The position numbers were made by a program, and so were the translations under genes. Below the pieces are notes generated by a model, which saw nothing but the letters and a program-made list of their open reading frames with translations, was not told where the DNA came from and made no database searches. DNA of 64,000 bases from Candidatus Poribacteria bacterium (GTDB lineage Bacteria > Poribacteria > WGA-4E > WGA-3G), in NCBI GenBank assembly GCA_965209095.1, contig OZ242381.1:3589052-3653051 (forward strand), read 5' to 3'. Positions 2 through 53,201 of the stretch are shown piece by piece; the first letter of the stretch is position 1, and every line of letters begins with the position of its first letter.

Positions 2-2047
2 CATGATCCTGATGAGGTAACCCTTATTAACATTGTCGGTGAAATCGCTCCAGATAAGATTACTGAATTGCTTGGCAATTTAAGCAAATTCGGTATGACA
101 GATATTGATCTTGAAGACACGCTGAAGACAGGTGTTGAGCCAAAAGCAGAAAGGGATACCGTTCAAAAAGAGCTTCTCGCTGTCAAAGCAGAAAAACCAC
201 CAAAAATTGACGGTAAACTTGATGACCCATGTTGGAAAACCGCACCTCAAACCGACGGGTTCACGCATGTAGAAACGGAAAAACTTGTCAAAGATCAGAC
301 AATAGTCAAACTCCTTTACACCGACAAAGCGATCTACGTTGCCTGGTACATTTACGATTCTGATCCTAAAACAATCGTAACAGACAAGAAGTTGGATTCT
401 AGCCAGTTCCTTGATGCGGAATCGGTCTGCTTTAGCATAGACCCATTCCATACACATCAATCCAGGCCTCGCATCCGGTTTATGGTCAATCCGTTTGATC
501 AACAAAAATTTGAACGTCTATCATTGGGGAATCAGCAGAAATCTAAAGTGACGAACGATTGGATCGCGATTACGAAAATCGTTGATGATGGATGGGTTGT
601 AGAGATGGAAATTCCTTGGAAGGTGTTAGACTATCCAGATACTTCCGAACCGATTCAGATGGGGATCAACTTCAACAGGAAACAGCAGCGGACAGGTGAG
701 GATTCTTGGTGGTCAAATATAGGTGTTGAGAAGGAATACAAAAACGATGGCAATTGGATACGGGTATTACCACCACGAAAGTCTTCCCGCATGCAAGGAA
801 TGTTAGATGCATTTGAAGAAGGAAAATACAATGCTTCAGGTGTTTTTACACGTGGTAAAGACGGTTCTCCCACAGATAGCGATTTCTTTCGTCTCGTGAA
901 CACCAGCGGCTTAAATCCTATTGATGGGCTTAGACTCGGTGGTGGATTTGAACTCGGCACAGGGTGGAATCCTGATCCGTACTTTTTTGAAAGATCCGGC
1001 GAAACGATTCAACGGAATAGGATTCTAAACACAACATCATTCGGTATTGATGAGAACGAATTCGGTATACGATCAAGCCTATCACCGAAACCTTTCATAT
1101 TCGGTACTATGAGTTATGCACTTCGGACAGAATTCCCTAATTACCGACTTGGTGGTGGTGTCTTATTCGGCGAGAAATCAAGCCTCACTTATAGTGTCCA
1201 AATTCATAGGTTGACATCTGCCAGGGACAGAGATCTCTTATTAAGCGGCAGTGAACAGTTCTTAAGAGCGTTCTTTGATGCAGGTTTTCAAGACTACTAT
1301 ACAAGACAAGGGGGAGTCATGGCATTGCAATGGCAGCATGCATCCTTAAAGCATACGCTTGGACTATCCCTGCTTTTAGAGGAACATGAAAGTATTAGGG
1401 AAGATAGCACCTCTTACTTCAGAATCGGAACTTCAAGCTACCACTTAGGCACAGATCTAAGACCGAATTCTCCCATATACGATGGAAGAATGCATAGCAT
1501 CTCCCTTAAGTACGATTTTGACACCCGTCAGGACACTAAAATCAGCTATAACCTTAGAAACCGAGCGAACAAAAATGAGTGGTATAATACTTTCTTAGTT
1601 GAGCATTCTAATCCTGATTTGGGTTCTACGTATGATTTCACTCGCTTTATAATACATCTTCGCAACTATCACCCAATTGGAGATGATCGGATTGATACAC
1701 GTCTAAAAGTTGGACTTGCATCTACTTCGTATATGCTGCCTTACCAACGTCAATTTGTTCTTGGTGGCACAGGAACACTACGTGGATACTCTCTTTATGA
1801 ATTTGTAGGTAACCACGGATTCCTATTCAATATGGAGTATGCACATAATTTAGCAACTAATATTTACATTGTTCCTTTTGTAGATATAGGACAAACATGG
1901 ATGAATTTGGAAGAGATTAATGATATTTACCCGAAGGTTAATTTGGGTATCGGTTTCCAACTCGGTATCTTCAGATTGAACTTCGCAAGGGCACTTGAGA
2001 GGAGTAGTGAATATCGAGCCAATTTCAAATGGTCCCGCACGTTTTAA
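2..2047 (+). CDS. 5'-truncated multidomain outer-membrane protein: DUF4252-like tail, CBM9/DUF5916-like domain, C-terminal Omp85/BamA-TamA-like beta-barrel
   Basis: Frame is open from base 2 (HDPDEVTLINIVGEIAPDKITELLGNL, like a DUF4252 C-terminus). PPKIDGKLDDPCW...GWVVEMEIPW is the CBM9-like signature. C-terminus has LGGTGTLRGY, amphipathic strands and a terminal F. Confidence 0.65.
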   Translation, partial: HDPDEVTLINIVGEIAPDKITELLGNLSKFGMTDIDLEDTLKTGVEPKAERDTVQKELLAVKAEKPPKIDGKLDDPCWKTAPQTDGFTHVETEKLVKDQTIVKLLYTDKAIYVAWYIYDSDPKTIVTDKKLDSSQFLDAESVCFSIDPFHTHQSRPRIRFMVNPFDQQKFERLSLGNQQKSKVTNDWIAITKIVDDGWVVEMEIPWKVLDYPDTSEPIQMGINFNRKQQRTGEDSWWSNIGVEKEYKNDGNWIRVLPPRKSSRMQGMLDAFEEGKYNASGVFTRGKDGSPTDSDFFRLVNTSGLNPIDGLRLGGGFELGTGWNPDPYFFERSGETIQRNRILNTTSFGIDENEFGIRSSLSPKPFIFGTMSYALRTEFPNYRLGGGVLFGEKSSLTYSVQIHRLTSARDRDLLLSGSEQFLRAFFDAGFQDYYTRQGGVMALQWQHASLKHTLGLSLLLEEHESIREDSTSYFRIGTSSYHLGTDLRPNSPIYDGRMHSISLKYDFDTRQDTKISYNLRNRANKNEWYNTFLVEHSNPDLGSTYDFTRFIIHLRNYHPIGDDRIDTRLKVGLASTSYMLPYQRQFVLGGTGTLRGYSLYEFVGNHGFLFNMEYAHNLATNIYIVPFVDIGQTWMNLEEINDIYPKVNLGIGFQLGIFRLNFARALERSSEYRANFKWSRTF

Positions 2048-38727: not shown

Positions 38728-41700
38728 ATGAGGTGGTTTGTTTTGATTCGATTGCTAAAATTTGTTTACATTTTATCATTGGTTTTCTGCATTAATATAG
38801 TTGAGTACGCAGCAGCATTTGAACAGATGAAAAGTTACACTGTAGCAGATGGTCTGGTAGGTCCTATAGTACCTATTATTTACCAAGATAGTCGTGGTGT
38901 TCTTTGGTTTGGTTCAGATAGAGGTGGTGTCAGTAGCTATGATGGTAATAATTTTGTTCCTTATACTGACTTTGTTGTTAATGATAATGAGAAAACCGAA
39001 GAGTTCCGCGGCAGAACTAAAACTATTGTTGAGGATAAGTGGGGGTATATTTGGTGTTTGAGTAAACATCCGGCAGAAGGTAGCGGTGTTATCAGTAGAT
39101 ATAATGGAACAGATTTTGAAAAGATATCTGTTGGCAATTGCTTAGCTGTAGATAATGGTGGAGATATTTGGGTTGGTAGTGACAATGCAATTACACGTTA
39201 TAAATCACTCAACATGCAAGATCCTCCATTAGAATTTACACAAGTTATTAGTGGTGCTTCTGTTGCCATAATCAATGTAATTTTTCAAAGTAAAGACGGC
39301 ACATACTGGATAGGTGGACACGATGCAAAAGGTGCGCTAATTATGAAGTTCCACACTGATCTGAATATGTGGCAAATTGGAAACTTAGAACGGGTTGAAA
39401 ATATTCCAAATGCTCCAAAAGACCGTGCGATACAGACGATTATGCAAGACCGGAATGACGTTCTCTGGTTTGGGGGGCAATCACTACTATTTAGTTATGA
39501 TGGCGATCAATTCAAGGATATACTTAGCACATCTACAGAGACACAAAGCGGGAAACCTCAAACGACTACTTTTAATGATGAGACAAATGTATCGGTAAAG
39601 AGCGATGTATACGGAAGAATATGGTACAGTGATAATAGACAATTGAGTTGGTGGGATGGTAATACACTAAAACGTTTTAGAAAATATAACCCAAATTCAA
39701 CCCAAAATATGTATATGCAAGGTTCCTTTGAAATTGAAGATGCGTGGAACAATCTATGGTTTGCATCTGAAATGGGAGCTCATGCTTATGACAGCAAGTA
39801 TTTTGAAGAAGAAGAGAACAGCCTCTTTCAATTGGAGGCAGCACAAACTGAGTCTACAGCGTTACAACCGAAAGTATACGGAGTTGACCGTGGACTCGGC
39901 AGTGACAATATTATCACAATTTTTGAGGCGTTGGACGGTAAAATATGGTTCGGTCATGACAACGGTGTGACATCTTATGAACAACAACCTGTCATTGTGA
40001 ACCACACAACCCGAACAATATTGGGCAGCAATAGTGTTAGATTGATGGAATCAGATAGTACTGGAACTTTATGGCTAAGCATTCCGGGCGGTGTAGCACA
40101 ATATCTTGAAAGTGAAGATTTACTTACGCAACACAATTTAACAAACTTTGTTTATAGGTCTGAATCATTCAGTATTGAGATTAACTTTGATAACAATCCG
40201 AATTTAAATAGACGCACAGAGATATCACATATTTTTGAAGCAGATGGTTATATCTGGTTTATTGATAAACCTATTTTATCTCAAGAGCCACTTACATTAT
40301 ACAGAATTTTCCGATATAAAGATGGAAAATTTGAAAAGCACTCACTTTTCATACAGGCAGATATTGGTCCTGGAGGAGATACAATTCACGTTGATTCGGA
40401 ACCAATTGTTACTTCAAGCAAGGCCCCTTGGATTGTAATAGGAGGGTGGGTTTTCTTACCAAGAGGGAACGGGATGCACCGTCTTTTACCAGATGGCAAA
40501 ATCCGAAGAACATCGTTTAATTCCACAGAAGCATTACCCTCACCATCTGCAGCAGTAACTGCACTTCACACTGACAAACAAGATAGACTATGGTGCTATT
40601 ATGACGATGGAAATGTCAAACGATTTTCAAATATAACGAGACGTGAAAATTATGTGGGAGGTAATATCCACACCGAAGTACTGCAACTCAGTTCTGTCCT
40701 TCCTGTTATAGGTAATTCTGAAACGAATGTAGTCCAATGGTTTTACAATACAGTGAGTGGACAGTTGATGTATTGGCAGAATCCTGACAACAGAAATACA
40801 TTGACAGAACTTCCCGGAGCCGCAAGCGGTGCACCACTATTGGCTATTCAAACTACTTCATCTTCTCAAGGCACTTCTGAATCAGTTATTTTAGTTTTTC
40901 ATGACGGTATTAAAACATATCAAGGTGCAGAGTTGAGAAACGCTGTTTCTGTTGTAATTGAAAAGGTTAATGGGGCAATCACATCTACTGATGGTAATCT
41001 TTGGTTAGCTACATCACAAGGAGCCATCCAGTATAATGAACAGGAAGCCATAACATACACAACAACTACAGACGGTTTCCTTGTTGATGACTTACGTGAT
41101 GTCCATGAAGACCATTGGGGTAATATATGGTTTGCTACATGGGGTGGTGGTGTTGTCAGATATGATGGCAACGCATTCCAATCTGTTACGACCAAGGACG
41201 GGCTCATCCACAATAACGTATCAAGTATCCATGCTGCAAACGAAAAGGAATTGTGGTTTGGTACTGAAGGTGGAGCAACGCAGTATCGTGCAAATCTTGG
41301 GGCACTACCGTTTTGTCGTATCGTCTCTGTTGATGCAGGCAAGTCGTTCACTGAACCGTTTAGTAAAGAAACTGGTAATCAGATGATTACTGAAATTGAA
41401 GAACTGCTTCCCGCACACCTTAAAGATATAACTATCCATTTTCAAGGTATAAATCCACTCCGAGATGAAATGGAATATAAATTTAGATTAATTGGAATTG
41501 ATGACATTGTATGGTCAAGCATTCTATCTGCTGAGCAACAGGTTTCCAGTGAAAGAACTTTAGGTGGAGATGTACAGCAGTTTTATCAGCCACAACAGAT
41601 AGGTGAAACGGGCAGCTTTCCAAATATTCGTTATGAAGGCTTAAAATCAGGGAAATATACTTTTATGATAAAAGCGTTTCGTAAAGGGTGGCCCTATACA

Positions 41701-42621
41701 CAACAACCTGCGGTCCTAAATTTTACCATTGATCAGCCAATTTGGTCTCGATGGCGTAATTATCTCCCAACTCTGATTTTTGTGGCCGCAGTGGGTTCAT
41801 TGCTCTTTAGATTGATCGTAAATAGAAGACAGACGGCTCAATTACAACTTGAAATGCGTGAGAAAGAAGAGGCAGAAGTTCAACGAATACGGGCTGAGTT
41901 GAATGAAGCACAAAATATACAAACGGGGCTCCTGCCTATTGAAGCTCCAGATACAAGTGATTTTGATATTTCAGGTAGATCAATTCCCGCTACACAAGTG
42001 GGCGGTGATTTCTTTGACTATTTGACTGTGGCAAACGGGCAAACTGCAATCGCTGTTGCTGATGCTGCTGGTAAAGGTATCCGTGGTGCCATGAATGCGG
42101 TGTTAACAAACGGTATGCTACACGAAGTCGCACGATATAAATCTGAGGCGGATGTCATACTGACCGATCTCAATGCAGGTTTGTCCCCACGTATGTACGG
42201 CCCCAGTTTTATTGCTCTCAACTTAGCAGTCCTGAATGAATCCGATAAAAGTGTCGATTATGCAAACGGTGGACAACCTTATCCTATTCTCAAAAGAGGG
42301 GATCAAATCATTGAAATTGAGACCAGCGATCTTCCGTTGGGAAGTAGGAAAAACGTCGAATATGAATCTGCTACATTTGATCTAAATGAGAATGAATTTT
42401 TGATCTTTCATTCCGACGGTTTGATTGAAGCCCTCAACTCACAACAGGATATGTACGGAACAGAAAGACTAAACGATCTGATTGCAAAGGTCCCAAGTGA
42501 AAGTAGTGCTGAAGAAATGATACAGCATATCTTTGACGATGTGCAGGAATTTGTTCAGGAGGCAGAACAATACGATGATATGACGCTTGTCGTTCTCAAG
42601 CGGATATCGGTGTCTGAATAA
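38728..42621 (+). CDS. Membrane sensor: two-component-regulator beta-propeller, Y_Y_Y-like domain, TM helix, PP2C/SpoIIE phosphatase
   Basis: Repeated DxxGxLWFG; YEGLKSGKYTFMIKA; VGGDFFDY, ADAAGKG, SDGLIEA, DDMT. Confidence 0.88.
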   Translation: MRWFVLIRLLKFVYILSLVFCINIVEYAAAFEQMKSYTVADGLVGPIVPIIYQDSRGVLWFGSDRGGVSSYDGNNFVPYTDFVVNDNEKTEEFRGRTKTIVEDKWGYIWCLSKHPAEGSGVISRYNGTDFEKISVGNCLAVDNGGDIWVGSDNAITRYKSLNMQDPPLEFTQVISGASVAIINVIFQSKDGTYWIGGHDAKGALIMKFHTDLNMWQIGNLERVENIPNAPKDRAIQTIMQDRNDVLWFGGQSLLFSYDGDQFKDILSTSTETQSGKPQTTTFNDETNVSVKSDVYGRIWYSDNRQLSWWDGNTLKRFRKYNPNSTQNMYMQGSFEIEDAWNNLWFASEMGAHAYDSKYFEEEENSLFQLEAAQTESTALQPKVYGVDRGLGSDNIITIFEALDGKIWFGHDNGVTSYEQQPVIVNHTTRTILGSNSVRLMESDSTGTLWLSIPGGVAQYLESEDLLTQHNLTNFVYRSESFSIEINFDNNPNLNRRTEISHIFEADGYIWFIDKPILSQEPLTLYRIFRYKDGKFEKHSLFIQADIGPGGDTIHVDSEPIVTSSKAPWIVIGGWVFLPRGNGMHRLLPDGKIRRTSFNSTEALPSPSAAVTALHTDKQDRLWCYYDDGNVKRFSNITRRENYVGGNIHTEVLQLSSVLPVIGNSETNVVQWFYNTVSGQLMYWQNPDNRNTLTELPGAASGAPLLAIQTTSSSQGTSESVILVFHDGIKTYQGAELRNAVSVVIEKVNGAITSTDGNLWLATSQGAIQYNEQEAITYTTTTDGFLVDDLRDVHEDHWGNIWFATWGGGVVRYDGNAFQSVTTKDGLIHNNVSSIHAANEKELWFGTEGGATQYRANLGALPFCRIVSVDAGKSFTEPFSKETGNQMITEIEELLPAHLKDITIHFQGINPLRDEMEYKFRLIGIDDIVWSSILSAEQQVSSERTLGGDVQQFYQPQQIGETGSFPNIRYEGLKSGKYTFMIKAFRKGWPYTQQPAVLNFTIDQPIWSRWRNYLPTLIFVAAVGSLLFRLIVNRRQTAQLQLEMREKEEAEVQRIRAELNEAQNIQTGLLPIEAPDTSDFDISGRSIPATQVGGDFFDYLTVANGQTAIAVADAAGKGIRGAMNAVLTNGMLHEVARYKSEADVILTDLNAGLSPRMYGPSFIALNLAVLNESDKSVDYANGGQPYPILKRGDQIIEIETSDLPLGSRKNVEYESATFDLNENEFLIFHSDGLIEALNSQQDMYGTERLNDLIAKVPSESSAEEMIQHIFDDVQEFVQEAEQYDDMTLVVLKRISVSE

Positions 42622-43907: not shown

Positions 43908-44372
43908 ATGCGTTTTAAGAATTTTACAATTACTTTAACTCTTATTTGTTTGTCTGTTATAGCATTTGCTGGATTGGTACTTCTGCCGATTACAAATGGA
44001 ATATGTGCTTCGTGGACATATAAGAGTGTTGGTAGGGTTAATTCTGGAGTTTTAAATGTTAATTATAAGATGGACTTAGTTGGTCGGGGTTGGAGTCTAA
44101 CTGGACATTTGAGTGCTGGGCCTGGTGCTGCTATAGCTTCTGCCGCTCCAGAGATTGATGGAGAAAATGATTTCACAGAAACACATGCTTGGATCGGATA
44201 TGCAAATGCTTATGCAAGTAGAGAGAAATGTCATGAATATAGATTGAAATCGTGGTCTATAAGGTATCACGAAAAAGTTACCATTCCCGCGAAAGAAAGT
44301 TATTCCACTGGCGATCTTCGGGCAAAAGTAGTTGTTGGAACGCGGGCATGGGCAACGGGTGAGGTAAAATAA
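43908..44372 (+). CDS. Hypothetical secreted protein
   Basis: AAGGAG RBS, long signal peptide or anchor. Confidence 0.65.
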   Translation: MRFKNFTITLTLICLSVIAFAGLVLLPITNGICASWTYKSVGRVNSGVLNVNYKMDLVGRGWSLTGHLSAGPGAAIASAAPEIDGENDFTETHAWIGYANAYASREKCHEYRLKSWSIRYHEKVTIPAKESYSTGDLRAKVVVGTRAWATGEVK

Positions 44373-44464
44373 GATCCAATCCAGATACGAAAATTAGTCT
44401 GACTGCACCACTGGGAGTATTTGGGGGAGTAGGAAGTGAGATTAACTTCTCTGGAGGTATCTAC

Positions 44465-44743
44465 GTGCAAATTGACCAGGTAGAGGTAACTGGTCACATT
44501 GACACTCCCGTGGATGTTTCTGAGGTTCAGATAGCTCAGGTATTAGGTTCGTCACGTGCCAGAAAGAGTGCCAAGATAAACTCCTTCTGGTTTGGCACGC
44601 AATCGATAGATGCTGGAGAACAAGTAGTTGATACAACGCTTCGTGAAAATCATGATAATGGCAGTGTAAACTACGTACCTCCACCTCGAGACGTTATTTT
44701 TGTTGAAGGTAGTAGGGGATGGATAGCTATACCTGTACATTAA
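44465..44743 (+). CDS. Small hypothetical protein
   Basis: GGAGGT RBS with GTG start; beta-rich composition. Confidence 0.55.
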   Translation: MQIDQVEVTGHIDTPVDVSEVQIAQVLGSSRARKSAKINSFWFGTQSIDAGEQVVDTTLRENHDNGSVNYVPPPRDVIFVEGSRGWIAIPVH

Positions 44744-45254: not shown

Positions 45255-46829
45255 ATGAAACATAAAAGGTTATATATATTATTTCTAATTTTATTAACAA
45301 TGGGGACCGCTCTTCTTTTATACTTCCGTTCGGATTCACGCACTGCTTTGGTGAAACGTGTTCTTCCCTTCTCACAGGATAACAGTGAGGCAGCCCTTTT
45401 ACGGTTACATCCGCTTGCATCAGACGCAGCAATTAAGGCTACACACAAGCAGACCGTGGAGACATGGGAAGAATGGATTGACGCAAGAACTGAAGCCTGG
45501 TTAGGCGTTCAGGTAAAACACGGTGTATTAAAGACACAAGCAGAGATCGCAGCAAAACGTCCAGAGATCCGTGAAAGAGTAGCGAAGCTGGCAGAAATGT
45601 TCAAACCCTATTTAGACAAACCACCGACAGTAGGTGGAAAACCTCCGTGGCACTTGATACCAGGAGTGATATCACCGATAATCGTTCCTCCTAAGAAGTA
45701 TGAAGGACCACAAACAGTGGAAGGACTTATGGAGGCATTTGATGCAAAATATGTGAAATTCTACCCTGATGCTAGTTCCTATGATGCCTATTACTCCCGA
45801 TCTGAATGGCTTCAGATGCTTTTTGATAAAGGTATGCATTTTGAAAATCGAGACGATTACAACGTACTCCTTAACATCCGGGGATGGGTGATTAATGCCG
45901 AATCACACCCAGAATGGTGGAAGGAAGGAAAGGGTGGTGTTTCACCAACAAATAACTTTGAAACATATAAAAATGAGTATATTGACCGTCAGATATGGCA
46001 ACAGGAAATCTATAAACGTGTCACTACAGAAGACCCGACAGCAACTGGGATTCGCTTCTTTGATGACCGTCCAGATAAGTATCTGGTGACGTACCCTAAT
46101 ACATTATATGTAAATAGAGATGGTTCTGCGACAAGGTTTTGGGGAACGGGTGATAAGGCACGGCTTACCGACGAACAACAGAGGTTACTCATTGAGGAAG
46201 GAGTTCACCCCGAAGGTGTCGATGTTTTCTATGTTGATAATGATTACAATATCCTATCAGAAAAGCCTCCACCTTTTGATATGGAAACCTATATTCGTTC
46301 TCATATAACCGATGAACAACAAGAAGAAGAAGCGATAGAGTTAGAGGAATTTGGGGAAAGGTTGGAATCGGTTGAAGATGGTACAACGTTATCAGAAGAA
46401 CAGTTTAGAGGGAGTGATGAAGAAGTTTGGAGTAGCAGGTTTGATGCTGAGGCAGCCACTCGCGAAGCGACAGCAAAAGCCGAATTTGAAAGATTTCAGA
46501 ACGACATGCGGCAACGCAAAGAATTTGAAACGATGGTAGATAAGGAGGTCTCGCGGGAACTTGCAAAGCAATTTAGTCAACAATTTCTGTCTAAATATTC
46601 GTTGAAGCAGGGTACTTCTAAACAACTTGAAAATGCGTTACAACTCATGTTTCAACACGGGTTTGAGGAAGGTTTCCGCAGAGTCCGGCAGGATAGTCCC
46701 TCAATAGCAGATCAATTAGAGCGTTACTTGGCAGAGACAGAGAGACCATCTGCACCACAGAAAAGACCGCAAAGATCTTCGCCACCAAAGCCATCAGAAT
46801 CAGGACCACCTGAAACTGAAGCACCATAA
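45255..46829 (+). CDS. Hypothetical membrane-anchored protein with Pro-rich tail
   Basis: N-terminal TM; shares a domain with the next gene. Confidence 0.8.
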   Translation: MKHKRLYILFLILLTMGTALLLYFRSDSRTALVKRVLPFSQDNSEAALLRLHPLASDAAIKATHKQTVETWEEWIDARTEAWLGVQVKHGVLKTQAEIAAKRPEIRERVAKLAEMFKPYLDKPPTVGGKPPWHLIPGVISPIIVPPKKYEGPQTVEGLMEAFDAKYVKFYPDASSYDAYYSRSEWLQMLFDKGMHFENRDDYNVLLNIRGWVINAESHPEWWKEGKGGVSPTNNFETYKNEYIDRQIWQQEIYKRVTTEDPTATGIRFFDDRPDKYLVTYPNTLYVNRDGSATRFWGTGDKARLTDEQQRLLIEEGVHPEGVDVFYVDNDYNILSEKPPPFDMETYIRSHITDEQQEEEAIELEEFGERLESVEDGTTLSEEQFRGSDEEVWSSRFDAEAATREATAKAEFERFQNDMRQRKEFETMVDKEVSRELAKQFSQQFLSKYSLKQGTSKQLENALQLMFQHGFEEGFRRVRQDSPSIADQLERYLAETERPSAPQKRPQRSSPPKPSESGPPETEAP

Positions 46830-47410
46830 TGAAAAAACGGATACTTGGAGGTGTTATAGCACTTTTCATTGTTGCCGTGGTGGCAGCCTTCTATCACCAT
46901 AAAACCGATATTGAAGAATTCCAGTGGTATCGGCATTGGGATGAAATAGACCTCTCTACCATCAAAAGAGATTATCAACCTTTCACCGTCCCAGAAATGC
47001 AAGAAATGTGGTCCGATGAGCTGATTATTAAATATGGTGGATCAGAAAGATTCGGACAGTCAATCGGGAAGGCAGTTGACGTTTACCCGCAAAACACGTT
47101 TCTTGCACGCATGCTTGAATTAGGTAGACCTTTTGTTGACTTTTCGGATTATGAAGATACCCTGACAAATCAACGGGTAACGTTATATTCCACACGGGTT
47201 TACTGGGAAAGTATGAGTGCAGCAGAACGGGCAATTTATCTTGCACAGCGCGGTTTTCCACCTGATGCAACTTGGGAACACTATGAGGAAGTCCTGCTTA
47301 AAAATGAAGTTGTTCACAGTATCAATTTCTGGCTTTCAATTGAGCAGGACCCTTATATGAATGGTACAATATTGACAGGACGGACGCAGTTTCTCTTAAA
47401 GTCCCACTGA
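46829..47410 (+). CDS. Hypothetical membrane-anchored protein; C-terminus encoded by a MITE
   Basis: TAATG coupling; last codons lie within the element starting at 47376. Confidence 0.75.
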   Translation: MKKRILGGVIALFIVAVVAAFYHHKTDIEEFQWYRHWDEIDLSTIKRDYQPFTVPEMQEMWSDELIIKYGGSERFGQSIGKAVDVYPQNTFLARMLELGRPFVDFSDYEDTLTNQRVTLYSTRVYWESMSAAERAIYLAQRGFPPDATWEHYEEVLLKNEVVHSINFWLSIEQDPYMNGTILTGRTQFLLKSH

Positions 47411-47520: not shown

Positions 47521-50043
47521 ATGAAAACACTTATGGCAAAGAGGAACCAGCACTATAAAAGCGAAAAGACTGTGCGATTTTACCGCATTGCCAAACATTT
47601 CGGGGCATTCGTCCTGTTGACTTTGCTTCTGATCGTAGGTGGCAAAGTCCGCCTGCAAGGCATCCCAAACATTCCTCCTGGTCAGTTTGCTTCCAACGAT
47701 GCATTTCTCTATCTTTTGCAAGCACAAACAATTGTCGAGGATGGGACGTTACCGGAAGTAGAGATGCATCGCTGGGTTCCGCTCGGTAGAGATTTAAGAG
47801 AAACACTGAACGGTTACCCATACACTATTGCTTATACGTACAAGGTCCTAAAGATATTCTTTCCAGACATCACGATCTACCAGGTGTTGCTTTACGCGCC
47901 AACTGTCTGCTTTCTCATCGGTCTGGCGGTGTTGTGTCTTTTCCTCTATATCCGTTTCGGCTTTGGTGCTGCTGCCATCGTTGGGACGTTTCTGGTCATC
48001 ATGCCCGGTAGCATTGAACGGAGTGCCGCAGGATTCAGTGATAGAGACGGTTGGTGTTGGATGCTCGGTACCCTCGCCGTAACAACATATCTGTGGAAGG
48101 AAGACACAACAAGCAAACGGCTTAGATACCTTTGCACAGTCCTATCAGGTTTCTTTGTGTTCCTCGGCGGTTTAAGTTGGGAGGGGTTCGGTGGATTTGC
48201 CCTTGTGATCGTTATCGTTGAACTCTGGCGTTTTCTCACCACAGATGCTGAAGAACGTTTATTGGAATATGTGTTATGGGTGTTAATGTTTGTACCAACA
48301 CTTTACGTCCTTTCACCCGCTTATCACAGTGGCAGCGGGTTTACAACCCACGTCACAGCATTTTTACTGCTCCCATCTCTCATCATGCTACTGTTACGCA
48401 GTCTACGATATTTTCTGACACGCGGGCAACATGCTGTTTCAAAGTTTGTTGTTGAACAGATTTCTGCGCGTGCTGTCTCTCTTGTTTTTTGTGCAGTGTG
48501 TCTTCTCATCGGCATTGCGTATCTTGCACTTCAACGTGAAACGTTTGCACAAAGTATCGTGCCTTTCAGCGGTACCGATGTGATGGAAGATGTAGGTGAA
48601 CTTAAGACACCCCATGATATTTTCTGGTACGGTCGTTATGGACACGTGCTGCTTATTGCTTGTATAAGTCTCATTGTGGGATGTGTCAGGATTTGGGGTG
48701 CGAAAGCACTTATTCTCGCTTTCACACTTTTACTATTTACTGCTGCAACCTTTCTGCGTCAGTATTTATACTATATTCTGTCTCCTGCTATCTGTGAGTA
48801 TCTTTTCTACGGTGCAATCGCATTCACACCGATTGCTGCGTTGGGTATTGCTGCGCTTCGCAATCAACCGATCAAGCATGAACGGATTTACGTCGCTTTT
48901 GCGTTCTGGCTGCTCTTTTGGCTTGGTCTTGCCCGGGATGCACTCCGCTACGATTTCTTTATCGGAGTGCCACTTGCATGTTTCGCAGCCATCGCTATAC
49001 AGACAACCGCGGCGGACACTACACGCCGTATCACAGAGAAAATAGGAGATAAATGGAAAAAATATAACACAACAGTCCATCCATTGACAAAGACTGTTAT
49101 AACCACCGCAGCCATCCTTCTTATATTGTTTTGGGAACCTCCAGGTAACAAACCGCTACCAGCACTCGCCACAAGAGGTTTCAATACACATATCCAACCT
49201 GAACAGGTCTTCCCCGGAAAAAATACACCCATGGCAAACGCCTGTCAATGGATCCGCAAAAATCTTTCAACAGAAAAGGTTGTTGCGGCACCTTGGAGTT
49301 ACGGACACATGCTTAACGTCCTCGGTGGTGTCAAAACCGTCATCGGTCCGGACCATTTCATTTTACATTGGATAGACCTTTATGAAAAACATGTTTTAGC
49401 TGCAACCTCCGAACACGAAGCGTTAGAGTTTCTCAAAACACACCACGTAACCCATCTGTTATTATCAGAAAACGATGTCTTTCATAATGCCTTGCAACCG
49501 ATACACGTTGACGAAGTCCCGGAGCATGCGCCATATATGGTCCCGCTTGTACCACGTTCACCGTTCGGCAGTGCACACTACCGTATGGTCCCAGTACACA
49601 AAAACACACCTATCAAATTTGTTGAGATTGACTTCCATCGCAATCCTGTAACTGCCACTGCACGCCTAAAAAACGGCGAAACAGTCCATCTTCCATACTA
49701 TAAATACGATAGCTCAGAAGAATCGCCCCATACAGACCGGACACATGAGCAACATACTGTCGAGGCTCACCCTGTGGAATCCAATGACAGAAACGGCGGC
49801 ATCCTCCACCTATTCGACGCAAAAACGCACCAAGAAGCCATTCACTACCTTTCTCCACGTAGTTGGAACAGTCTCGCTGTTAGATTATTCCTTCGCGATG
49901 AACACAGTGAGGCGTTTGTTCCTGCATATCCAGGACAAGATAGTGCATCTACTAAAGTAAAAATATGGGAATTACATTATCCACCTGACATAAAAGAAAA
50001 TCTGGAATATCTTGCAAAGTTCCCAAAAAAGAAAGAGAAATGA
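47521..50043 (+). CDS. STT3/AglB/PglB-like oligosaccharyltransferase with divergent WWD motif
   Basis: NDAFLY, ERSAAGFSDRD, DVGE, about 13 TM helices, VVAAPWSYGHML at the WWDYG position. Confidence 0.8.
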   Translation: MKTLMAKRNQHYKSEKTVRFYRIAKHFGAFVLLTLLLIVGGKVRLQGIPNIPPGQFASNDAFLYLLQAQTIVEDGTLPEVEMHRWVPLGRDLRETLNGYPYTIAYTYKVLKIFFPDITIYQVLLYAPTVCFLIGLAVLCLFLYIRFGFGAAAIVGTFLVIMPGSIERSAAGFSDRDGWCWMLGTLAVTTYLWKEDTTSKRLRYLCTVLSGFFVFLGGLSWEGFGGFALVIVIVELWRFLTTDAEERLLEYVLWVLMFVPTLYVLSPAYHSGSGFTTHVTAFLLLPSLIMLLLRSLRYFLTRGQHAVSKFVVEQISARAVSLVFCAVCLLIGIAYLALQRETFAQSIVPFSGTDVMEDVGELKTPHDIFWYGRYGHVLLIACISLIVGCVRIWGAKALILAFTLLLFTAATFLRQYLYYILSPAICEYLFYGAIAFTPIAALGIAALRNQPIKHERIYVAFAFWLLFWLGLARDALRYDFFIGVPLACFAAIAIQTTAADTTRRITEKIGDKWKKYNTTVHPLTKTVITTAAILLILFWEPPGNKPLPALATRGFNTHIQPEQVFPGKNTPMANACQWIRKNLSTEKVVAAPWSYGHMLNVLGGVKTVIGPDHFILHWIDLYEKHVLAATSEHEALEFLKTHHVTHLLLSENDVFHNALQPIHVDEVPEHAPYMVPLVPRSPFGSAHYRMVPVHKNTPIKFVEIDFHRNPVTATARLKNGETVHLPYYKYDSSEESPHTDRTHEQHTVEAHPVESNDRNGGILHLFDAKTHQEAIHYLSPRSWNSLAVRLFLRDEHSEAFVPAYPGQDSASTKVKIWELHYPPDIKENLEYLAKFPKKKEK

Positions 50044-50542
50044 AAATGAAACGTCCTTTGAAACGCGTTTTTATTGTCGGTGCCGTCCTGTTTTTCTGTC
50101 TTGTACTCACGCACGCAACGTGGCAACGTTTTCAGAAGCACACGCCCAAAAAGGTCTATGTGGTACCCGAAATTGAACACAAAAAATCTGTTAAGAAAAA
50201 TGAAAACTTTACGCACATCTTAAACCGAAACCCGTTGACCAAAAAGAACTTTTTTATAGCACAATTATTGAGAACAATATCTTTGCACCATTGGGGTGGA
50301 AACCGAAAAAACCTACACCTATCTATCGCCTAATCGGGACCCGTATACCGATAGGACAGGAAATCAAGGCAACTGCTATCTTACAAGAAACATCGGGAAA
50401 GTCAGTGTTAAGGGTTGTATCTATTGGCACACAACTTGGCGAAGACACCTTTGTTGTTGATATCCAACCAAAACAGGTAGTCCTTAAAAAAGGGAATCTC
50501 CGAACACCTATCCGAATGAAAACAATGCCATTCCTAAAATAA
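50040..50542 (+). pseudogene. GspC-like (type II secretion C N-terminal-like) gene split by a -1 frameshift
   Basis: Frame 1 gives the TM anchor. The -1 frame is open from 50204 and reads KELFYSTIIENNIFAPLGW...YRLIGT...VVDIQPKQVVL. Confidence 0.6.
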
Positions 50543-50547
50543 TAACT

Positions 50548-51135
50548 ATGACCGCCAACATCATCACACTCACACGTATTGCTCTCACATTCACTCTCAT
50601 CGCACTCTTCGGAAAAAACAGGTCCATAGACATCGCAGCCATCGCCATAATTCCACTCATTTTCGGGCTCGATGCTGTAGACGGGTATATCGCACGAAAA
50701 TATAATCAGACAAATGCACTCGGGGCAGTTTTGGATATTGCAGCAGACAGGATCATTGAAAATGTTTTTTGGATATACTTTGCTACACACCAAGTCATAC
50801 ACGTCTGGATGCCCATCGCTGTCCTCACACGCGGAATCATCACAGATACAATACGAAGCTTCGCTCTTAAAGATGGGGACACACCCTTTGAAATGAACAC
50901 ATGCACATGGGCACGTGCAATCACAAGTTCCCGAATCTCGCGATTGGTCTCTGGCGTATCAAAGATGGGTGCATGCTTCGCAATGGCAGTCTCACTCACT
51001 CTCAAAACGCATCAGATACACACAACAACACAAATTCTCGCTACCCTTGCAGTTGCCATCTGTATCATTCGCGGGATACCAGTATTGATTGAAGGCAGAA
51101 AATACGTCACTGCTACGTTTCTCGAGCAACAGTGA
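50548..51135 (+). CDS. CDP-alcohol phosphatidyltransferase family protein
   Basis: ANIITLTR, DAVDGYIARKYNQTNALGAVLDIAAD signature. Confidence 0.9.
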   Translation: MTANIITLTRIALTFTLIALFGKNRSIDIAAIAIIPLIFGLDAVDGYIARKYNQTNALGAVLDIAADRIIENVFWIYFATHQVIHVWMPIAVLTRGIITDTIRSFALKDGDTPFEMNTCTWARAITSSRISRLVSGVSKMGACFAMAVSLTLKTHQIHTTTQILATLAVAICIIRGIPVLIEGRKYVTATFLEQQ

Positions 51136-51281: not shown

Positions 51282-53201
51282 TTACGCATTTCTAAAGTCT
51301 ATCACTGTTTGCCGATATTCTTCGGGTAGACCGATATCAAACCTTCGTCCTTTTACAACATATCCAGAGAAACCATCTGCCTTCCGCAAATCGTCTAAAC
51401 AAGATGTGAGTTGAAATTCACCGCGTTCACGGAAGTTGTGTTCTATGTTCTGCTCAAGGAAACCGAAAACCTGCGGTTCAATTACATATATTCCGAATAC
51501 TGTGAGGAAACTATCATCATCCATACCATCTACATGTAAGTGTTCCCTTGCGTATTCAGGATCAGGTTTTTCATAGAACTCAGTTACCGATAGCATTGAT
51601 GCTTCTTCACTCCATACACCTGTAACACACCCAAAATTAGACAGTTCATCTATCGGTGTCTCCTTTAGTCCAACAACACTATGCCCTACCCGTTCATAAG
51701 CATCTAAGACCTGTTTTGTACAAGAATATGCTTCATCGGAGGCGTAAAGGTGATCTCCTAACATTAACAAGAACGGTTCCCCGTTGACCCAATCCTTAGC
51801 ACAGTAAACGGCGTGTCCGAAACCTTCCTGAACATCCTGTGTGACAAACGATATACGACTTCCCAATTCGGTTAGATAGTCACAGTATGTCTTATTTTCC
51901 TTGCTCAGTTTGTTATAGTGTTCAATACGAGGCGGTGTTTTAAAATAAGATTCAAACAGCTCAATATCTCTGCTTTGAACGATTAGACATACTTCCTCAA
52001 TACCTGCATTGACTGCTTCTTCAACAATCGCCATGATGGCTGGCTTAGCACGCCCTGTCCGGTCTATAACCGGAAATAACTCTTTTTTCATCGCTTTTGA
52101 TGCGGGGAAAAGGCGAGTACCAAATCCAGCTGCAGGGATAACCGCTTTACGCACATGCTTACTTGCTTCAATGACAAGTTTTAGGCAGGACATCTGCAGA
52201 TCACGTTCTATTATTTCAATTACCTTTCGCTGGCTCTCTTCATCTTTTACGATAAATTGTGCAGAACCATCACCTTGGGAACCGACCCCTTTACCACCCC
52301 AAATATAGGGTTGTATCGGTTCATAGTTGAGTACCTTATGAAGGACAGGGGCTGTTAATTGTGAGGGACAAGCGGGAATCAAGTGCTCATCAAACGCATG
52401 TTGTGCACGGGACATTAACCTACCGACAGCCTCTGCATTTCCAAGTCTCAGTGCCTCATGGGCAGATTGTGTAATTTCTTTACTCAAGGGACCGAGAAAA
52501 TGCTGGACTTTATTTTGTAGTTCATTTTCAGCGAAAGGGTAACAGTCATTCAACTGATTAAGTATCAGACGTGTATCTTTTCCAACTCCCAAGTCAACAA
52601 TCACCATGTATAGGTTTGATGGCACACTGAATTCTCTGACATCAATATTATCCCCATCAAAAACCATTAAGATAGGATGTTGATAAGCACATCCCTGGTC
52701 CATCCTACCACAACGCGAAGGTGTCTTGATCTCACCTTGATAAGCATACTCCATTTCATCGCGAGTTGTCATTTTTAAGTCGTAAATTCGATTAAATGCT
52801 CGTGCAACTAAAACGCAGATTGCCGCACTGGAGGATAGTCCTTTTTTCACTGGTAAATCTGTTAGGTAGTTGTCAATTTCTAACCCTTGGACGCGATAAT
52901 TCGTAAGAATTTGATATGCAACCCCCGCAGCATAACTGAAAAAACTACCTTTTTCAGCTTCCTCAAGTAAAGCAGCGGGTTCCATGGGTAATGTAAATGG
53001 ACCGTGACGTATCCCATCGCTCAGACTGGTTTTCAAAATAAGACTTGTTGGGTGCGGTTGTATTTCGGCATAGACTCCTTGGTTCGTGCTTGTGATGAGG
53101 GTATATCCTTTTTCAAGTTCAGCATTTGTCCGTCTATGCCCACCCGCCCAATCGCTGTGTTCTCCGAAGAGACATATACGTCCTGGAACAAAAAGTTTCA
53201 T
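51282..53201 (-). CDS. Bifunctional GHMP-family sugar kinase / UTP-sugar-1-phosphate uridylyltransferase
   Basis: PGRICLFGEHSD and PVKKGLSSSAA, then KAVIPAAGFGTRLFPASKAMKKELFP and GFGHAV. Confidence 0.88.
   Translation of the reverse strand: MKLFVPGRICLFGEHSDWAGGHRRTNAELEKGYTLITSTNQGVYAEIQPHPTSLILKTSLSDGIRHGPFTLPMEPAALLEEAEKGSFFSYAAGVAYQILTNYRVQGLEIDNYLTDLPVKKGLSSSAAICVLVARAFNRIYDLKMTTRDEMEYAYQGEIKTPSRCGRMDQGCAYQHPILMVFDGDNIDVREFSVPSNLYMVIVDLGVGKDTRLILNQLNDCYPFAENELQNKVQHFLGPLSKEITQSAHEALRLGNAEAVGRLMSRAQHAFDEHLIPACPSQLTAPVLHKVLNYEPIQPYIWGGKGVGSQGDGSAQFIVKDEESQRKVIEIIERDLQMSCLKLVIEASKHVRKAVIPAAGFGTRLFPASKAMKKELFPVIDRTGRAKPAIMAIVEEAVNAGIEEVCLIVQSRDIELFESYFKTPPRIEHYNKLSKENKTYCDYLTELGSRISFVTQDVQEGFGHAVYCAKDWVNGEPFLLMLGDHLYASDEAYSCTKQVLDAYERVGHSVVGLKETPIDELSNFGCVTGVWSEEASMLSVTEFYEKPDPEYAREHLHVDGMDDDSFLTVFGIYVIEPQVFGFLEQNIEHNFRERGEFQLTSCLDDLRKADGFSGYVVKGRRFDIGLPEEYRQTVIDFRNA

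Follow-up and report, generated by a model that had tools for sequence, protein, structure and literature searches.

A Poribacteria family of STT3/AglB-type transferases with kept catalytic residues and a degenerate WWDYG motif

Results

An STT3-like gene lies in a conserved Poribacteria operon

The stretch of DNA analyzed here (the window) spans 64,000 nt of Candidatus Poribacteria bacterium GCA_965209095.1 (contig OZ242381.1, 3,589,052–3,653,051, forward strand); the genome is that of a sponge-associated member of the Poribacteria. The window carries an intact gene for an STT3/AglB-like GT-C transferase, which forms part of a conserved operon of the form E-A-A'-STT3L-B-(CDP-OH_P_transf), in which stop and start codons overlap (Table 1). 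Family loci were collected by scanning genomes with a clade-only alignment and profile (A1); 84 loci were examined and 73 transferase copies were aligned. The family is expanded in Poribacteria, with at least four to five transferase paralogues per genome, and the same architecture is kept in dozens of species and paralogues. Comparison of the window gene with its orthologues gave dN/dS values of 0.13–0.23, i.e., purifying selection, the value being 0.23 (at a dS of 0.25) against locus L001, the closest orthologue compared in this way.

Among the partner genes, the partner A family was present in 38 of the 84 loci, usually as the gene that immediately precedes the transferase, and partner B in 36. 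Partner A had no match in Pfam or NCBIfam and no structural neighbor in the PDB (best E 1.1) despite the confident core of its model, and the idea that it is a known oligosaccharyltransferase (OST) subunit or a recognizable domain was therefore rejected. The C-terminal domain of partner B is weakly GspC (T2SSC)-like. A CDP-alcohol phosphatidyltransferase gene was found in 20/84 loci, 17 times as the first or second gene after the transferase (+1 or +2), and its weak NCBIfam matches include inositol-phosphate-type synthases. At L001, the STT3-like/B/CDP-OH_P_transf module appears to be tandemly duplicated, with the first STT3-like copy only partly inside the locus. In 12 paralogue loci there is also a gene for an AglJ-like polyprenyl-phosphate hexosyltransferase (TIGR04182, E 4e-46), which directly follows the transferase gene in eight of them. 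The window operon itself contains no gene for a GT2 enzyme, a GtrA-like protein, an initiating phosphoglycosyltransferase, or a flippase.

We also considered the operon partners as sequon-rich substrates. Family E contained 58 N-X-S/T sites against 48 expected from shuffled sequences, while the other families were at expectation; with no enrichment over shuffled sequences, this role was rejected, and the partners carry no detectable substrate signature. In the window strain, two partners are frameshifted, B by a 1-nt deletion at 50202 and E by a 1-nt deletion near 44366. Both deletions sit in or beside an A-run, and both were confirmed by public reads. For partner B, the sequence of the window recurs in independent contigs of two samples and studies, so an assembly error can be discarded. 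Since both E and B are disrupted, the system may be decaying in this strain.

Table 1. Genes of the operon and sequence motifs of the transferase (positions in nt of the window; residue numbers are those of the transferase)
Feature	Position	Strand	Description
Partner E	43908..44743	+	~265 aa in relatives; signal or anchor sequence; first gene of the conserved operon
Partner A	45255..46829	+	524 aa; N-terminal anchor; orphan fold; stop overlaps the A' start
Partner A'	46829..47410	+	193 aa; anchored; domain common to A and A'
STT3/AglB-like GT-C transferase	47521..50043	+	intact ATG-to-stop ORF, 840 aa
N59-D60-A61	47695..47703	+	first acidic motif, external loop 1 (EL1); D60 invariant (A1, A2), aligns with STT3A D49
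R84-W-V-P-L-G-R90	47770..47790	+	EL1 motif; matches RAWYPLGR of eukaryotic STT3
D174-R175-D176	48040..48048	+	second DXD motif; aligns with STT3A D167-N-E169
D357-V-G-E360-L	48589..48603	+	TIXE/SVSE-position motif, EL5; E360 invariant, aligns with STT3A S-V-S-E351
R476	48946..48948	+	invariant Arg; aligns with STT3A R405
P591-W592-S593-Y594-G595	49291..49305	+	degenerate WWDYG at the aligned position (phmmer and profiles)
T606-V-I-G-P-D611-H612-F	49336..49359	+	segment at the DGGK / DNXTZNX[T/S] position (profile alignment)
Partner B	50040..50542	+	normally 165 aa; membrane-anchored; start overlaps the transferase stop
CDP-alcohol phosphatidyltransferase	50548..51135	+	divergent; CDP-OH_P_transf

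The transferase belongs with STT3, AglB, and PglB

Searched on its own, the window protein had no Pfam match at E ≤ 1, STT3 (PF02516) included, and its sole NCBIfam match was to the archaeal TIGR04154, at 46 bits against a cutoff of 450. The clade-only profile A1 returned one weak match in the PDB, to the C-terminal domain of yeast Stt3 (E 5e-4). Whereas the single protein gave nothing in Pfam, strong homology emerged with a superfamily alignment and profile that includes it (A2). This profile matched human STT3A (E 4e-41), yeast STT3 (1e-36), Archaeoglobus fulgidus AglB (AfAglB; 1.5e-19), and Campylobacter lari PglB (8e-9), and all motifs lined up in these alignments; the STT3 C-terminal core also aligned, with yeast Stt3 2lgz at E 3e-11. 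Pfam STT3 (PF02516) was matched at E ≤ 0.001 by 22 of 32 superfamily members, Poribacteria paralogues among them, and STT3-PglB_core by 11 of the 32.

The AlphaFold (AF2) model of the transferase (pLDDT 82, pTM 0.83) has two parts, a GT-C membrane domain of multiple helices and, C-terminal to it, a periplasmic alpha/beta domain in which the STT3-specific core is kept; as in STT3, this core begins with a strand that is followed by W-x-x-G and a helix. The top 19 Foldseek matches of the model in the PDB were all AglB, STT3, or PglB (E 9e-16 to 3e-11), with AfAglB 7e9s first (E 9e-16) and human STT3A, yeast Stt3, and PglB 5ogl (6e-12) also present. DPY19 entries (E 2e-9 to 8e-8) ranked below all of these and ArnT followed at 2e-5, so that the structure is matched far better by STT3, AglB, and PglB than by ArnT, PMT, AftA, or Emb. 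By fold and by profile comparison, the window protein is an STT3/AglB/PglB-type GT-C transferase.

Comparison with the individual systems places it closest to the eukaryotic and archaeal enzymes. Eukaryotic STT3 and TACK/Asgard-type AglB (CAZy GT66) gave the best profile match and have the same fold; the EL1 sequence R-W-x-P-L-G-R resembles RAWYPLGR, and the D-x-D/E, the x-V-x-E, and the conserved Arg each line up with their counterparts. Unlike STT3, the window protein has PWSYG for WWDYG, G-P-D-H-F for the double-sequon DNXTZNX[T/S], and an extra C-terminal beta-rich extension, closed by a family-specific K-I-W-E-x-x-Y-P-x-D; moreover, it is bacterial and apparently single-subunit, and its partners resemble no known OST subunit. 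The top structural neighbor, A. fulgidus AglB-L (7e9s, 3waj, 5gmy), was aligned at E 9e-16 over 763 columns with a TM of 0.56. The two proteins are alike in size (840 vs. ~870 aa), and both carry additional units in a large periplasmic domain, but they share only ~14% identity, and AfAglB has the canonical WWDYG, DGGK, and DK-variant motifs that form its Ser/Thr pocket (PMC3703281, PMC8342417). Campylobacter PglB (3rce, 5ogl) is likewise bacterial and single-subunit with the same fold, and its profile match spans the region from the Arg to WWDYG, yet it is far more distant than STT3 or AglB; PglB also has WWDYG, an MI motif, and the pgl cluster for assembly of the lipid-linked oligosaccharide (LLO), while the window gene lacks WWDYG, a recognized MI motif, and such a cluster. 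Finally, DPY19 and the Gtr/ArnT-type enzymes have the GT-C fold and the EL1 acidic residue in common with the window protein, but lack two features that it keeps, the periplasmic core of STT3 and a motif of the TIXE type.

Catalytic and carrier-binding residues are retained

A preliminary description of the locus had placed NDA, DRD, and VGE at the catalytic acidic positions, and the profile alignments bear this out for residues 59–61, 174–176, and 358–360. D60, E360, and R476 are conserved in the 73 Poribacteria copies and across the superfamily, and R84, P87, and G89 are invariant throughout A2. The second DXD motif, which phmmer alone pairs with the DNE of STT3A, is kept in 72/73 copies, the exception being L030, a truncated copy without the region. 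We take the position of R476 and STT3A R405 to be that of the phosphate-contacting Arg of OSTs. In AfAglB, R426 has been placed near the phosphate site (PMC8342417). At the EL5 motif, the clade consensus is T-V-x-E-L, and the window protein has Asp rather than Thr or Ser at the first position. In AfAglB, the TIXE motif pairs with the backbone of the sequon (PMC8342417), and retention of x-[VI]-x-E argues somewhat for a peptide or protein acceptor.

The WWDYG position is degenerate throughout the Poribacteria family

The segment AAPWSYGH (residues 589–596, nt 49285–49308) was paired by phmmer alone with SWWDYGY of human STT3A and AAWWDYGY of yeast Stt3. The correspondence of PWSYG to WWDYG is based on sequence and profile alignment together with secondary structure (a strand at 587–589 and a helix from 592), and phmmer and profiles agree in putting APWSYGH where STT3, PglB, and AglB have WWDYG, as had been proposed. 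The role earlier ascribed to WWD, binding of the +2 Ser/Thr, likewise agrees with published structures, in which WWD and the DK/MI motif together make the +2 Ser/Thr pocket (PMC8342417, PMC3703281).

Conservation of WSYG in the clade, a point raised in the preliminary description, holds only in part: PWSYG is kept in 11/11 of the immediate orthologues, but across the family the motif is x-W-x-x-G, and its flanking positions vary more than any others in the region. The family is invariant at W592, G595, and N599. By contrast, between-group identity drops to 0.24 at position 591, 0.14 at 593, and 0.16 at 596, compared with a regional mean of 0.52. No column of the region varies more than position 593, that of the Asp, where S, G, D, N, E, I, T, and P all occur; some paralogues retain W-D-Y-G (e.g., ANWDYG and ADWDYG). 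The first Trp is absent from all 73 Poribacteria copies. Loss of WWDYG thus marks the whole paralogue family and is not peculiar to the window gene.

The DGGK or DNXTZNX[T/S] motif, as defined in PMC8342417, is missing; the clade consensus at this place is D-x-D-H-[FY], with G609 replacing the first Asp in the window protein, and distant superfamily relatives carry D-G-G-N there. Neither a DK (DXXKXXX[MI]) nor an MI (MXXIXXX[IVW]) motif was recognized, the mapping being tentative as the segment falls outside the HMM and structural alignments. With the same tentative mapping, other paralogues show G-S-D-x-x-x-D-R near the expected place, and this sequence is absent from the orthologue group of the window gene.

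Relatives in LLO-type gene clusters keep WWDYG

In all, 753 representative relatives of the transferase were collected. More distant bacterial and uncultured members of the superfamily (e.g., P0155, P0159, P0174, and P0214) keep AAWWDYG or AHWWDYGYW. Relatives of this type are 21–27% identical to the window protein over the full length and share with it the catalytic motifs and a C-terminal K-I-W-E-I-x-Y-P-x-D. Two of their loci were examined, and in both the neighboring genes are of the kind needed for LLO-type biosynthesis: a Glycos_transf_4 phosphoglycosyltransferase, GT2 and GT4 enzymes, and DegT at P0214, and GT2 enzymes with a Polysacc_synt (Wzx-like) flippase at P0159. Since WWDYG is strictly kept in these relatives, the motif is normally constrained. 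Judged from these alignments, WWDYG is the ancestral state of the superfamily and the WWD-less form is derived.

Discussion

The catalytic residues of the window protein are kept while its sequon-reading motif is mostly lost, and it therefore probably acts on a different target. With a probability that we put at roughly 55%, the gene product is a catalytically competent STT3/AglB-type OST from a WWD-less subfamily specific to Poribacteria, in which the choice of site would be sequon-independent. The donor of such an enzyme would be a glycan linked to polyprenyl phosphate or polyprenyl diphosphate on the outer side of the inner membrane, its mechanism would be the usual metal-dependent one, and its acceptor would be a polypeptide that is exported or anchored in the membrane. 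The clamp on the +2 Ser/Thr hydroxyl, formed by the first Trp and the Asp of WWD together with the DK/MI segment, would be gone, and site selection would consequently not be canonically N-X-S/T-dependent. Specificity would probably come from the hypervariable positions flanking W592, from partners A, A', and B, which are lineage-specific and coupled to it in translation, or from both; these partners could act as subunits that set specificity or could themselves be its dedicated substrates. An enzyme with an STT3-like fold that acts on a site other than Asn has a precedent in DPY19, which modifies Trp. The preliminary description had proposed an active GT-C enzyme with a different acceptor, be it a non-sequon protein site, a lipid, or a glycan. 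Its structural part stands, in that the protein is STT3-type, keeps its catalytic residues, is under purifying selection, and has PWSYG at the WWDYG position; activity and a changed acceptor are what these sequence features would predict.

More tentatively, the Ser/Thr clamp may have become a hypervariable specificity site, with each paralogue having its own orphan anchored partners. The outcome could be a sequon-independent, modular protein glycosylation, or else the decoration of a non-protein acceptor in the envelope.

To our knowledge, the bacterial N-OSTs characterized so far are essentially those of Campylobacterota and Desulfobacterota, and every one has WWDYG. The Poribacteria family differs from them in several respects: it belongs to another phylum, resembles the STT3 of eukaryotes and archaea more closely than PglB, has several copies per genome, and has systematically lost the N-X-S/T clamp with its catalytic residues under selection. 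Searches of the literature on Poribacteria with STT3 or OST, and on STT3-like bacterial families, returned nothing specific. If active, these transferases would be a natural experiment on how the acceptor specificity of OSTs is encoded, and possible enzymes for glyco-engineering with relaxed or new site preferences. They would also point to surface glycosylation in dominant sponge symbionts, whose envelope likely matters to recognition by the host.

An ordinary N-OST acting on N-X-S/T would be a simpler account, although we think it rather unlikely. Here W592 and the hydroxyl of S593, perhaps with H596, would bind the +2 residue, and the variation around them would be tolerated drift. W592 corresponds to the second Trp and S593 could hydrogen-bond the +2 hydroxyl, so some sequon recognition may survive. 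This account counts all other OST motifs as kept, and it is consistent with the invariance of the second Trp and the Gly, with the paralogues that have W-D-Y-G, and with the structural plasticity of the WWDYG segment among AglBs (PMC3703281). Against it, however, stand the lack of the first Trp in every aligned copy and the low identity of the Asp column, as well as the DK/MI-region segment that, on tentative mapping, is missing from the orthologue group of the window gene. The PglB double mutant W458A/D459A is the standard inactive form of that enzyme, and the relatives in LLO clusters hold strictly to the canonical motif.

The other account to which we give a similarly low probability is a non-protein acceptor. 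The transferase would then be a GT-C enzyme that uses a polyprenyl-phosphate sugar to extend a glycan or a phospholipid-anchored glycolipid, modeled on the Gtr-type three-component systems or on lipoglycan assembly of the PIM/LAM type, with the CDP-alcohol phosphatidyltransferase making the lipid acceptor. The presence of this co-operonic gene fits a lipid acceptor at least as well as a protein one, and its recurrence next to the transferase, its weak resemblance to inositol-phosphate-type synthases, and the tandem module at L001 point the same way. So do the number of paralogues per genome, which is typical of glycan-modifying GT-Cs, and the loss of the Ser/Thr pocket. Gtr/ArnT-type enzymes offer the precedent for non-protein acceptors; three-component, glycan-modifying GT-C systems are documented (PMC11127046), and a polyprenyl-phosphate-sugar synthase (the AglJ/GtrB-like GT2) adjoins some of the Poribacteria paralogues. 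The three-component set of a GT-C, a GT2, and a small flippase is nevertheless not found in the window operon. Euryarchaeal AglBs use AglJ-type enzymes and monophosphate carriers in true N-glycosylation, so the GT2 neighbor does not discriminate between protein and non-protein acceptors. What argues against a non-protein acceptor is that the protein retains the periplasmic core specific to STT3 as well as the x-V-x-E that pairs with peptide, that STT3, AglB, and PglB fit the fold better than ArnT, PMT, AftA, or Emb, and that the most conserved partners are the membrane-anchored A and B rather than enzymes of glycan synthesis.

That the gene is instead a noncatalytic or decaying relic (a pseudoenzyme or scaffold in an operon degenerating in the window strain) is very improbable, for although the read-confirmed deletions in E and B and the degenerate recognition motif would suit it, the ORF is intact, every catalytic residue is conserved, dN/dS is low, and the architecture persists across dozens of species and paralogues.

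Identity of the Transferase

The STT3-like transferase is encoded by one ATG-to-stop ORF of 840 aa, present as a single copy within the 64-kb window and unremarkable in GC content (~0.44–0.46 vs. 0.36–0.46 elsewhere in the window). The protein alone was too diverged for Pfam, giving no match at E ≤ 1, and it scored 46 bits with the archaeosortase-A-associated STT3 model of NCBIfam (TIGR04154) against a cutoff of 450. With phmmer, alignments to PDB sequences were weak (E 0.002–0.17); in these, DRD paired with D-N-E of human STT3A, and AAPWSYGH with SWWDYGY of STT3A and AAWWDYGY of yeast Stt3. A word-indexed protein search returned 370 relatives, several with a precomputed PF02516 match and the named ones all "Candidatus Poribacteria hypothetical protein," and an exhaustive search returned 753 related representative clusters (E ≤ 1e-3). 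We aligned the window protein with 11 Poribacteria paralogues and 20 distant relatives (alignment A2, 32 members), and the resulting profile matched STT3A (E 4e-41), STT3B (1e-37), yeast STT3 (1e-36), Archaeoglobus fulgidus AglB-L (1.5e-19), and Campylobacter lari PglB (8e-9). Among the A2 members, Pfam found STT3 in 22 of 32 and STT3-PglB_core in 11 of 32. With these homologues in hand, we regard STT3 identity and motif correspondence as settled.

From 30 clade sequences, AlphaFold2 gave a confident model (mean pLDDT 82.3, pTM 0.83). Its best 19 PDB neighbours were all AglB, STT3, or PglB (E 9e-16 to 3e-11), with DPY19 (2e-9), ArnT (2e-5), ALG9, AftA, and PMT ranked lower. In it a strand (587–589) is followed by a helix (592–602), a strand–motif–helix order also known around WWDYG in solved oligosaccharyltransferases (OSTs) (PMC3703281). 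Profile and model neighbours thus bear out the STT3-like GT-C assignment of the preliminary description, whose NDA, DRD, VGE, and PWSYG motifs all lie in the ORF; in the sequence alignment, PWSYG falls, as it had proposed, at the WWDYG position.

The PWSYG-bearing protein is a real feature, and by descent and fold it is a member of the STT3/AglB/PglB superfamily, closer to eukaryotic/archaeal STT3 than to PglB. Unlike that family, it lacks WWDYG and DGGK/DNXT, and probably DK/MI too. Because two or three defining periplasmic motifs fail, we class it as a WWD-less STT3-like subfamily and not as a canonical OST. Our literature search found no paper on STT3 homologues in Poribacteria or on a WWD-less bacterial STT3 family; an evolutionary survey (PMC4973528) notes, inside the archaeal radiation, no more than "a few bacterial homologues."

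Coordinates of the features, with human STT3A counterparts read from the A2 profile columns holding each window residue
Feature	Residues	Position (nt; window unless a locus is named)	Strand	Counterpart or content
STT3-like gene		47521..50043	+	
NDA	59-61	47695-47703	+	first acidic motif; D60 = STT3A D49
R84-W-x-P-L-G-R90	84-90			STT3A R-A-W-Y-P-L-G-R
DRD	174-176	48040-48048	+	second acidic motif; D174-x-D176 = STT3A D167-N-E169
VGE, inside DVGEL (357-361)	358-360	48589-48603 (DVGEL)	+	x-V-x-E360 = STT3A S-V-S-E351
R476	476			STT3A R405
AAPWSYGH	589-596	49285-49308	+	W592-x-x-G595 = second W and G of STT3A W-W-D-Y-G
E		43908..44743		
A		45255..46829		
A'		46829..47410		
B		50040..50542		
GHMP kinase-GalU fusion		51282..53201	-	639 aa
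1297-aa protein		38728..42621	+	
P0159 locus		L084 8001..14790		STT3, two GT2 genes, Wzx-like flippase
P0214 locus		L085 5352..10631		two tandem STT3, Glycos_transf_4 phosphoglycosyltransferase, GT2/GT4, DegT, epimerase
AglJ-like GT2 at gene +1		L031, L036, L037, L040, L044, L046, L050, L064		

A Paralogue Family without the WWD Motif

A scan of species-representative genomes gave 280 relatives, of which the best 80 were from Poribacteria MAGs throughout, bar one labelled "uncultured bacterium." Several genomes hold multiple copies: at least five in CBDBFT010000001 (L015, L047, L051, L068, L083) and SB0670_bin_33, and at least four in OX638351 and PCPOR2a. In 73 copies extracted from the scanned loci, D60, D174-x-D176, E360, and R476 were essentially invariant, the first Trp of WWD occurred in none, and the motif read x-W-[S/G/D/N/E/I/T/P]-[Y/F/H/D/S/L/A]-G. 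When the copies were clustered at ≥55% identity into 19 groups, W592, G595, and N599 were invariant across groups, and positions 591, 593, and 596 were the region's most variable (between-group identity 0.24, 0.14, and 0.16 vs. a mean of 0.52). Conservation of WSYG in the clade, raised in the preliminary description, thus holds locally, P-W-S-[Y/F]-G-H being fixed in 11/11 members of the window's orthologue group, but family-wide just x-W-x-x-G is kept. Where OSTs carry DGGK or DNXTZNX[T/S], the clade reads D-x-D-H-[FY] and the window protein G-P-D-H-F. A G-S-D-x-x-x-D-R segment of other paralogues, tentatively at roughly the place of the STT3 DK motif, is absent from the window's orthologue group.

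More distant superfamily members, which share a C-terminal K-I-W-E-I-x-Y-P-x-D signature, form a graded series from AHWWDYGYW with D-G-G-N, through AAWWDYGS with D-E-D-H, to A[D/E/S]W[S/T/E/D][Y/F]G. By this series, PWSYG is a derived state whose ancestor had canonical WWDYG. P0214 and P0159, two of the relatives that keep WWDYG, are located in gene clusters of the lipid-linked oligosaccharide type. Locus L085 additionally encodes a RuBisCO-like and an IF-2B-like protein, a combination that we take to suggest a CPR/DPANN-type organism.

Activity and Acceptor

In OSTs, the Glu of TIXE and a pair of DXD motifs make up the site that binds metal and activates the amide; the acceptor peptide is paired, in antiparallel orientation, with the TIXE segment; and WWD plus DK/MI form the +2 Ser/Thr hydroxyl pocket (PMC8342417, PMC3703281). 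The window protein has the STT3 fold with the full set of catalytic and phosphate-binding residues; its gene is under purifying selection (dN/dS 0.13–0.23 at dS 0.25–1.08 against seven orthologues), with a degenerate, derived WWDYG and conserved operon partners. At the sequence level, low dN/dS and invariant catalytic residues argue for an active enzyme, as previously proposed, and make a relic very improbable.

We infer that the enzyme would still work by the standard OST mechanism, its donor being a glycan linked to polyprenyl-(di)phosphate. Its acceptor would most likely be a polypeptide, because x-[VI]-x-E-L is retained. With the +2 hydroxyl clamp gone, site choice would have to rest on something else, candidates being the hypervariable residues around W592 or co-encoded partners. 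To this reading as a whole we give a probability of roughly 55%. A still-canonical sequon OST, which the retained catalytic set would suit, is unlikely given the missing clamp. It is similarly doubtful that the acceptor is a glycan or lipid, as in Gtr/ArnT-type or lipoglycan systems: a CDP-alcohol phosphatidyltransferase neighbour, GT2 neighbours, and a precedent (PMC11127046) favour this, and the retained x-[VI]-x-E-L speaks for a polypeptide.

Operon Partners and Genomic Context

Loci of the orthologue group are arranged as (methyltransferase)–E (~265 aa)–A (~530)–A' (~195)–STT3-like–B (165)–CDP-alcohol phosphatidyltransferase (~205), with stop and start codons overlapping at A/A' and STT3-like/B. 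A-type proteins occur in 38, B in 36, and the CDP-alcohol phosphatidyltransferase in 20 of 84 loci. Twelve of the 84 loci, in paralogue groups other than the window gene's, carry an AglJ-like polyprenyl-phosphate hexosyltransferase, a GT2 whose best match is archaeal AglJ/dolichyl-phosphate hexose transferase (TIGR04182, E 4e-46); in 8 loci it is the gene at +1. Further groups have a MacB/FtsX-type permease, WD40 proteins, and small Cys-rich proteins upstream of the transferase.

A, A', and E had no Pfam or NCBIfam match, and B matched GspC/T2SSC weakly (E 1e-3). The partners showed no enrichment in N-X-S/T. A and A' are members of one family that is confined to Poribacteria, has several paralogues in each genome, and carries a common D-L-x-x-I-K-R-D-Y-Q-P-Y-T-V motif. 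Since the confident core of the A model had no PDB structural neighbour (best E 1.1), A looks like an orphan fold.

Two partners are frameshifted in this strain. In B, an A-run at 50202 is one nucleotide shorter than in L001 and L005 (GAAAA instead of GAAAAA), which breaks the gene into two ORFs; this 1-nt deletion was confirmed in independent contigs from two hosts/studies (X1 and X2 at 74–80x, X5 at 9x); in X6, a marine metagenome population ~97% identical, the extra A is present and the frame intact. This could be recent pseudogenization or homopolymer-length variation. E, ~265–275 aa in relatives, has a 1-nt deletion beside an A-run near 44366, which a contig from run X1 (73x) confirms. 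In the close relative L005, E has lost a nucleotide at another place, so the gene seems to have been disrupted repeatedly.

On the opposite strand, a fusion joins an N-terminal GHMP kinase resembling galactokinase/mevalonate kinase to a C-terminal GalU-type UTP-glucose-1-phosphate uridylyltransferase (TIGR01099, E 2e-53). From its domains, it could supply UDP-hexose as a one-protein sugar-salvage route; it is kept near the transferase in orthologous loci L001, L008, L009, L018, and L021. In L001 (1..11628), from a related 6.4-Mb Poribacteria contig, the STT3-like/B/CDP-alcohol phosphatidyltransferase module appears twice in tandem, ~10 kb apart, the first STT3-like copy lying just partly inside the locus. 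The B copies are 93% and the transferase copies 95.5% identical, with two A-type and several E-type genes between the modules. Elsewhere in the window, the 1297-aa protein combines beta-propeller repeats of the Reg_prop type and a Y_Y_Y domain with a SpoIIE/PP2C phosphatase domain at its C-terminus, which gives it the look of a large sensor phosphatase; it is probably unrelated to the transferase.
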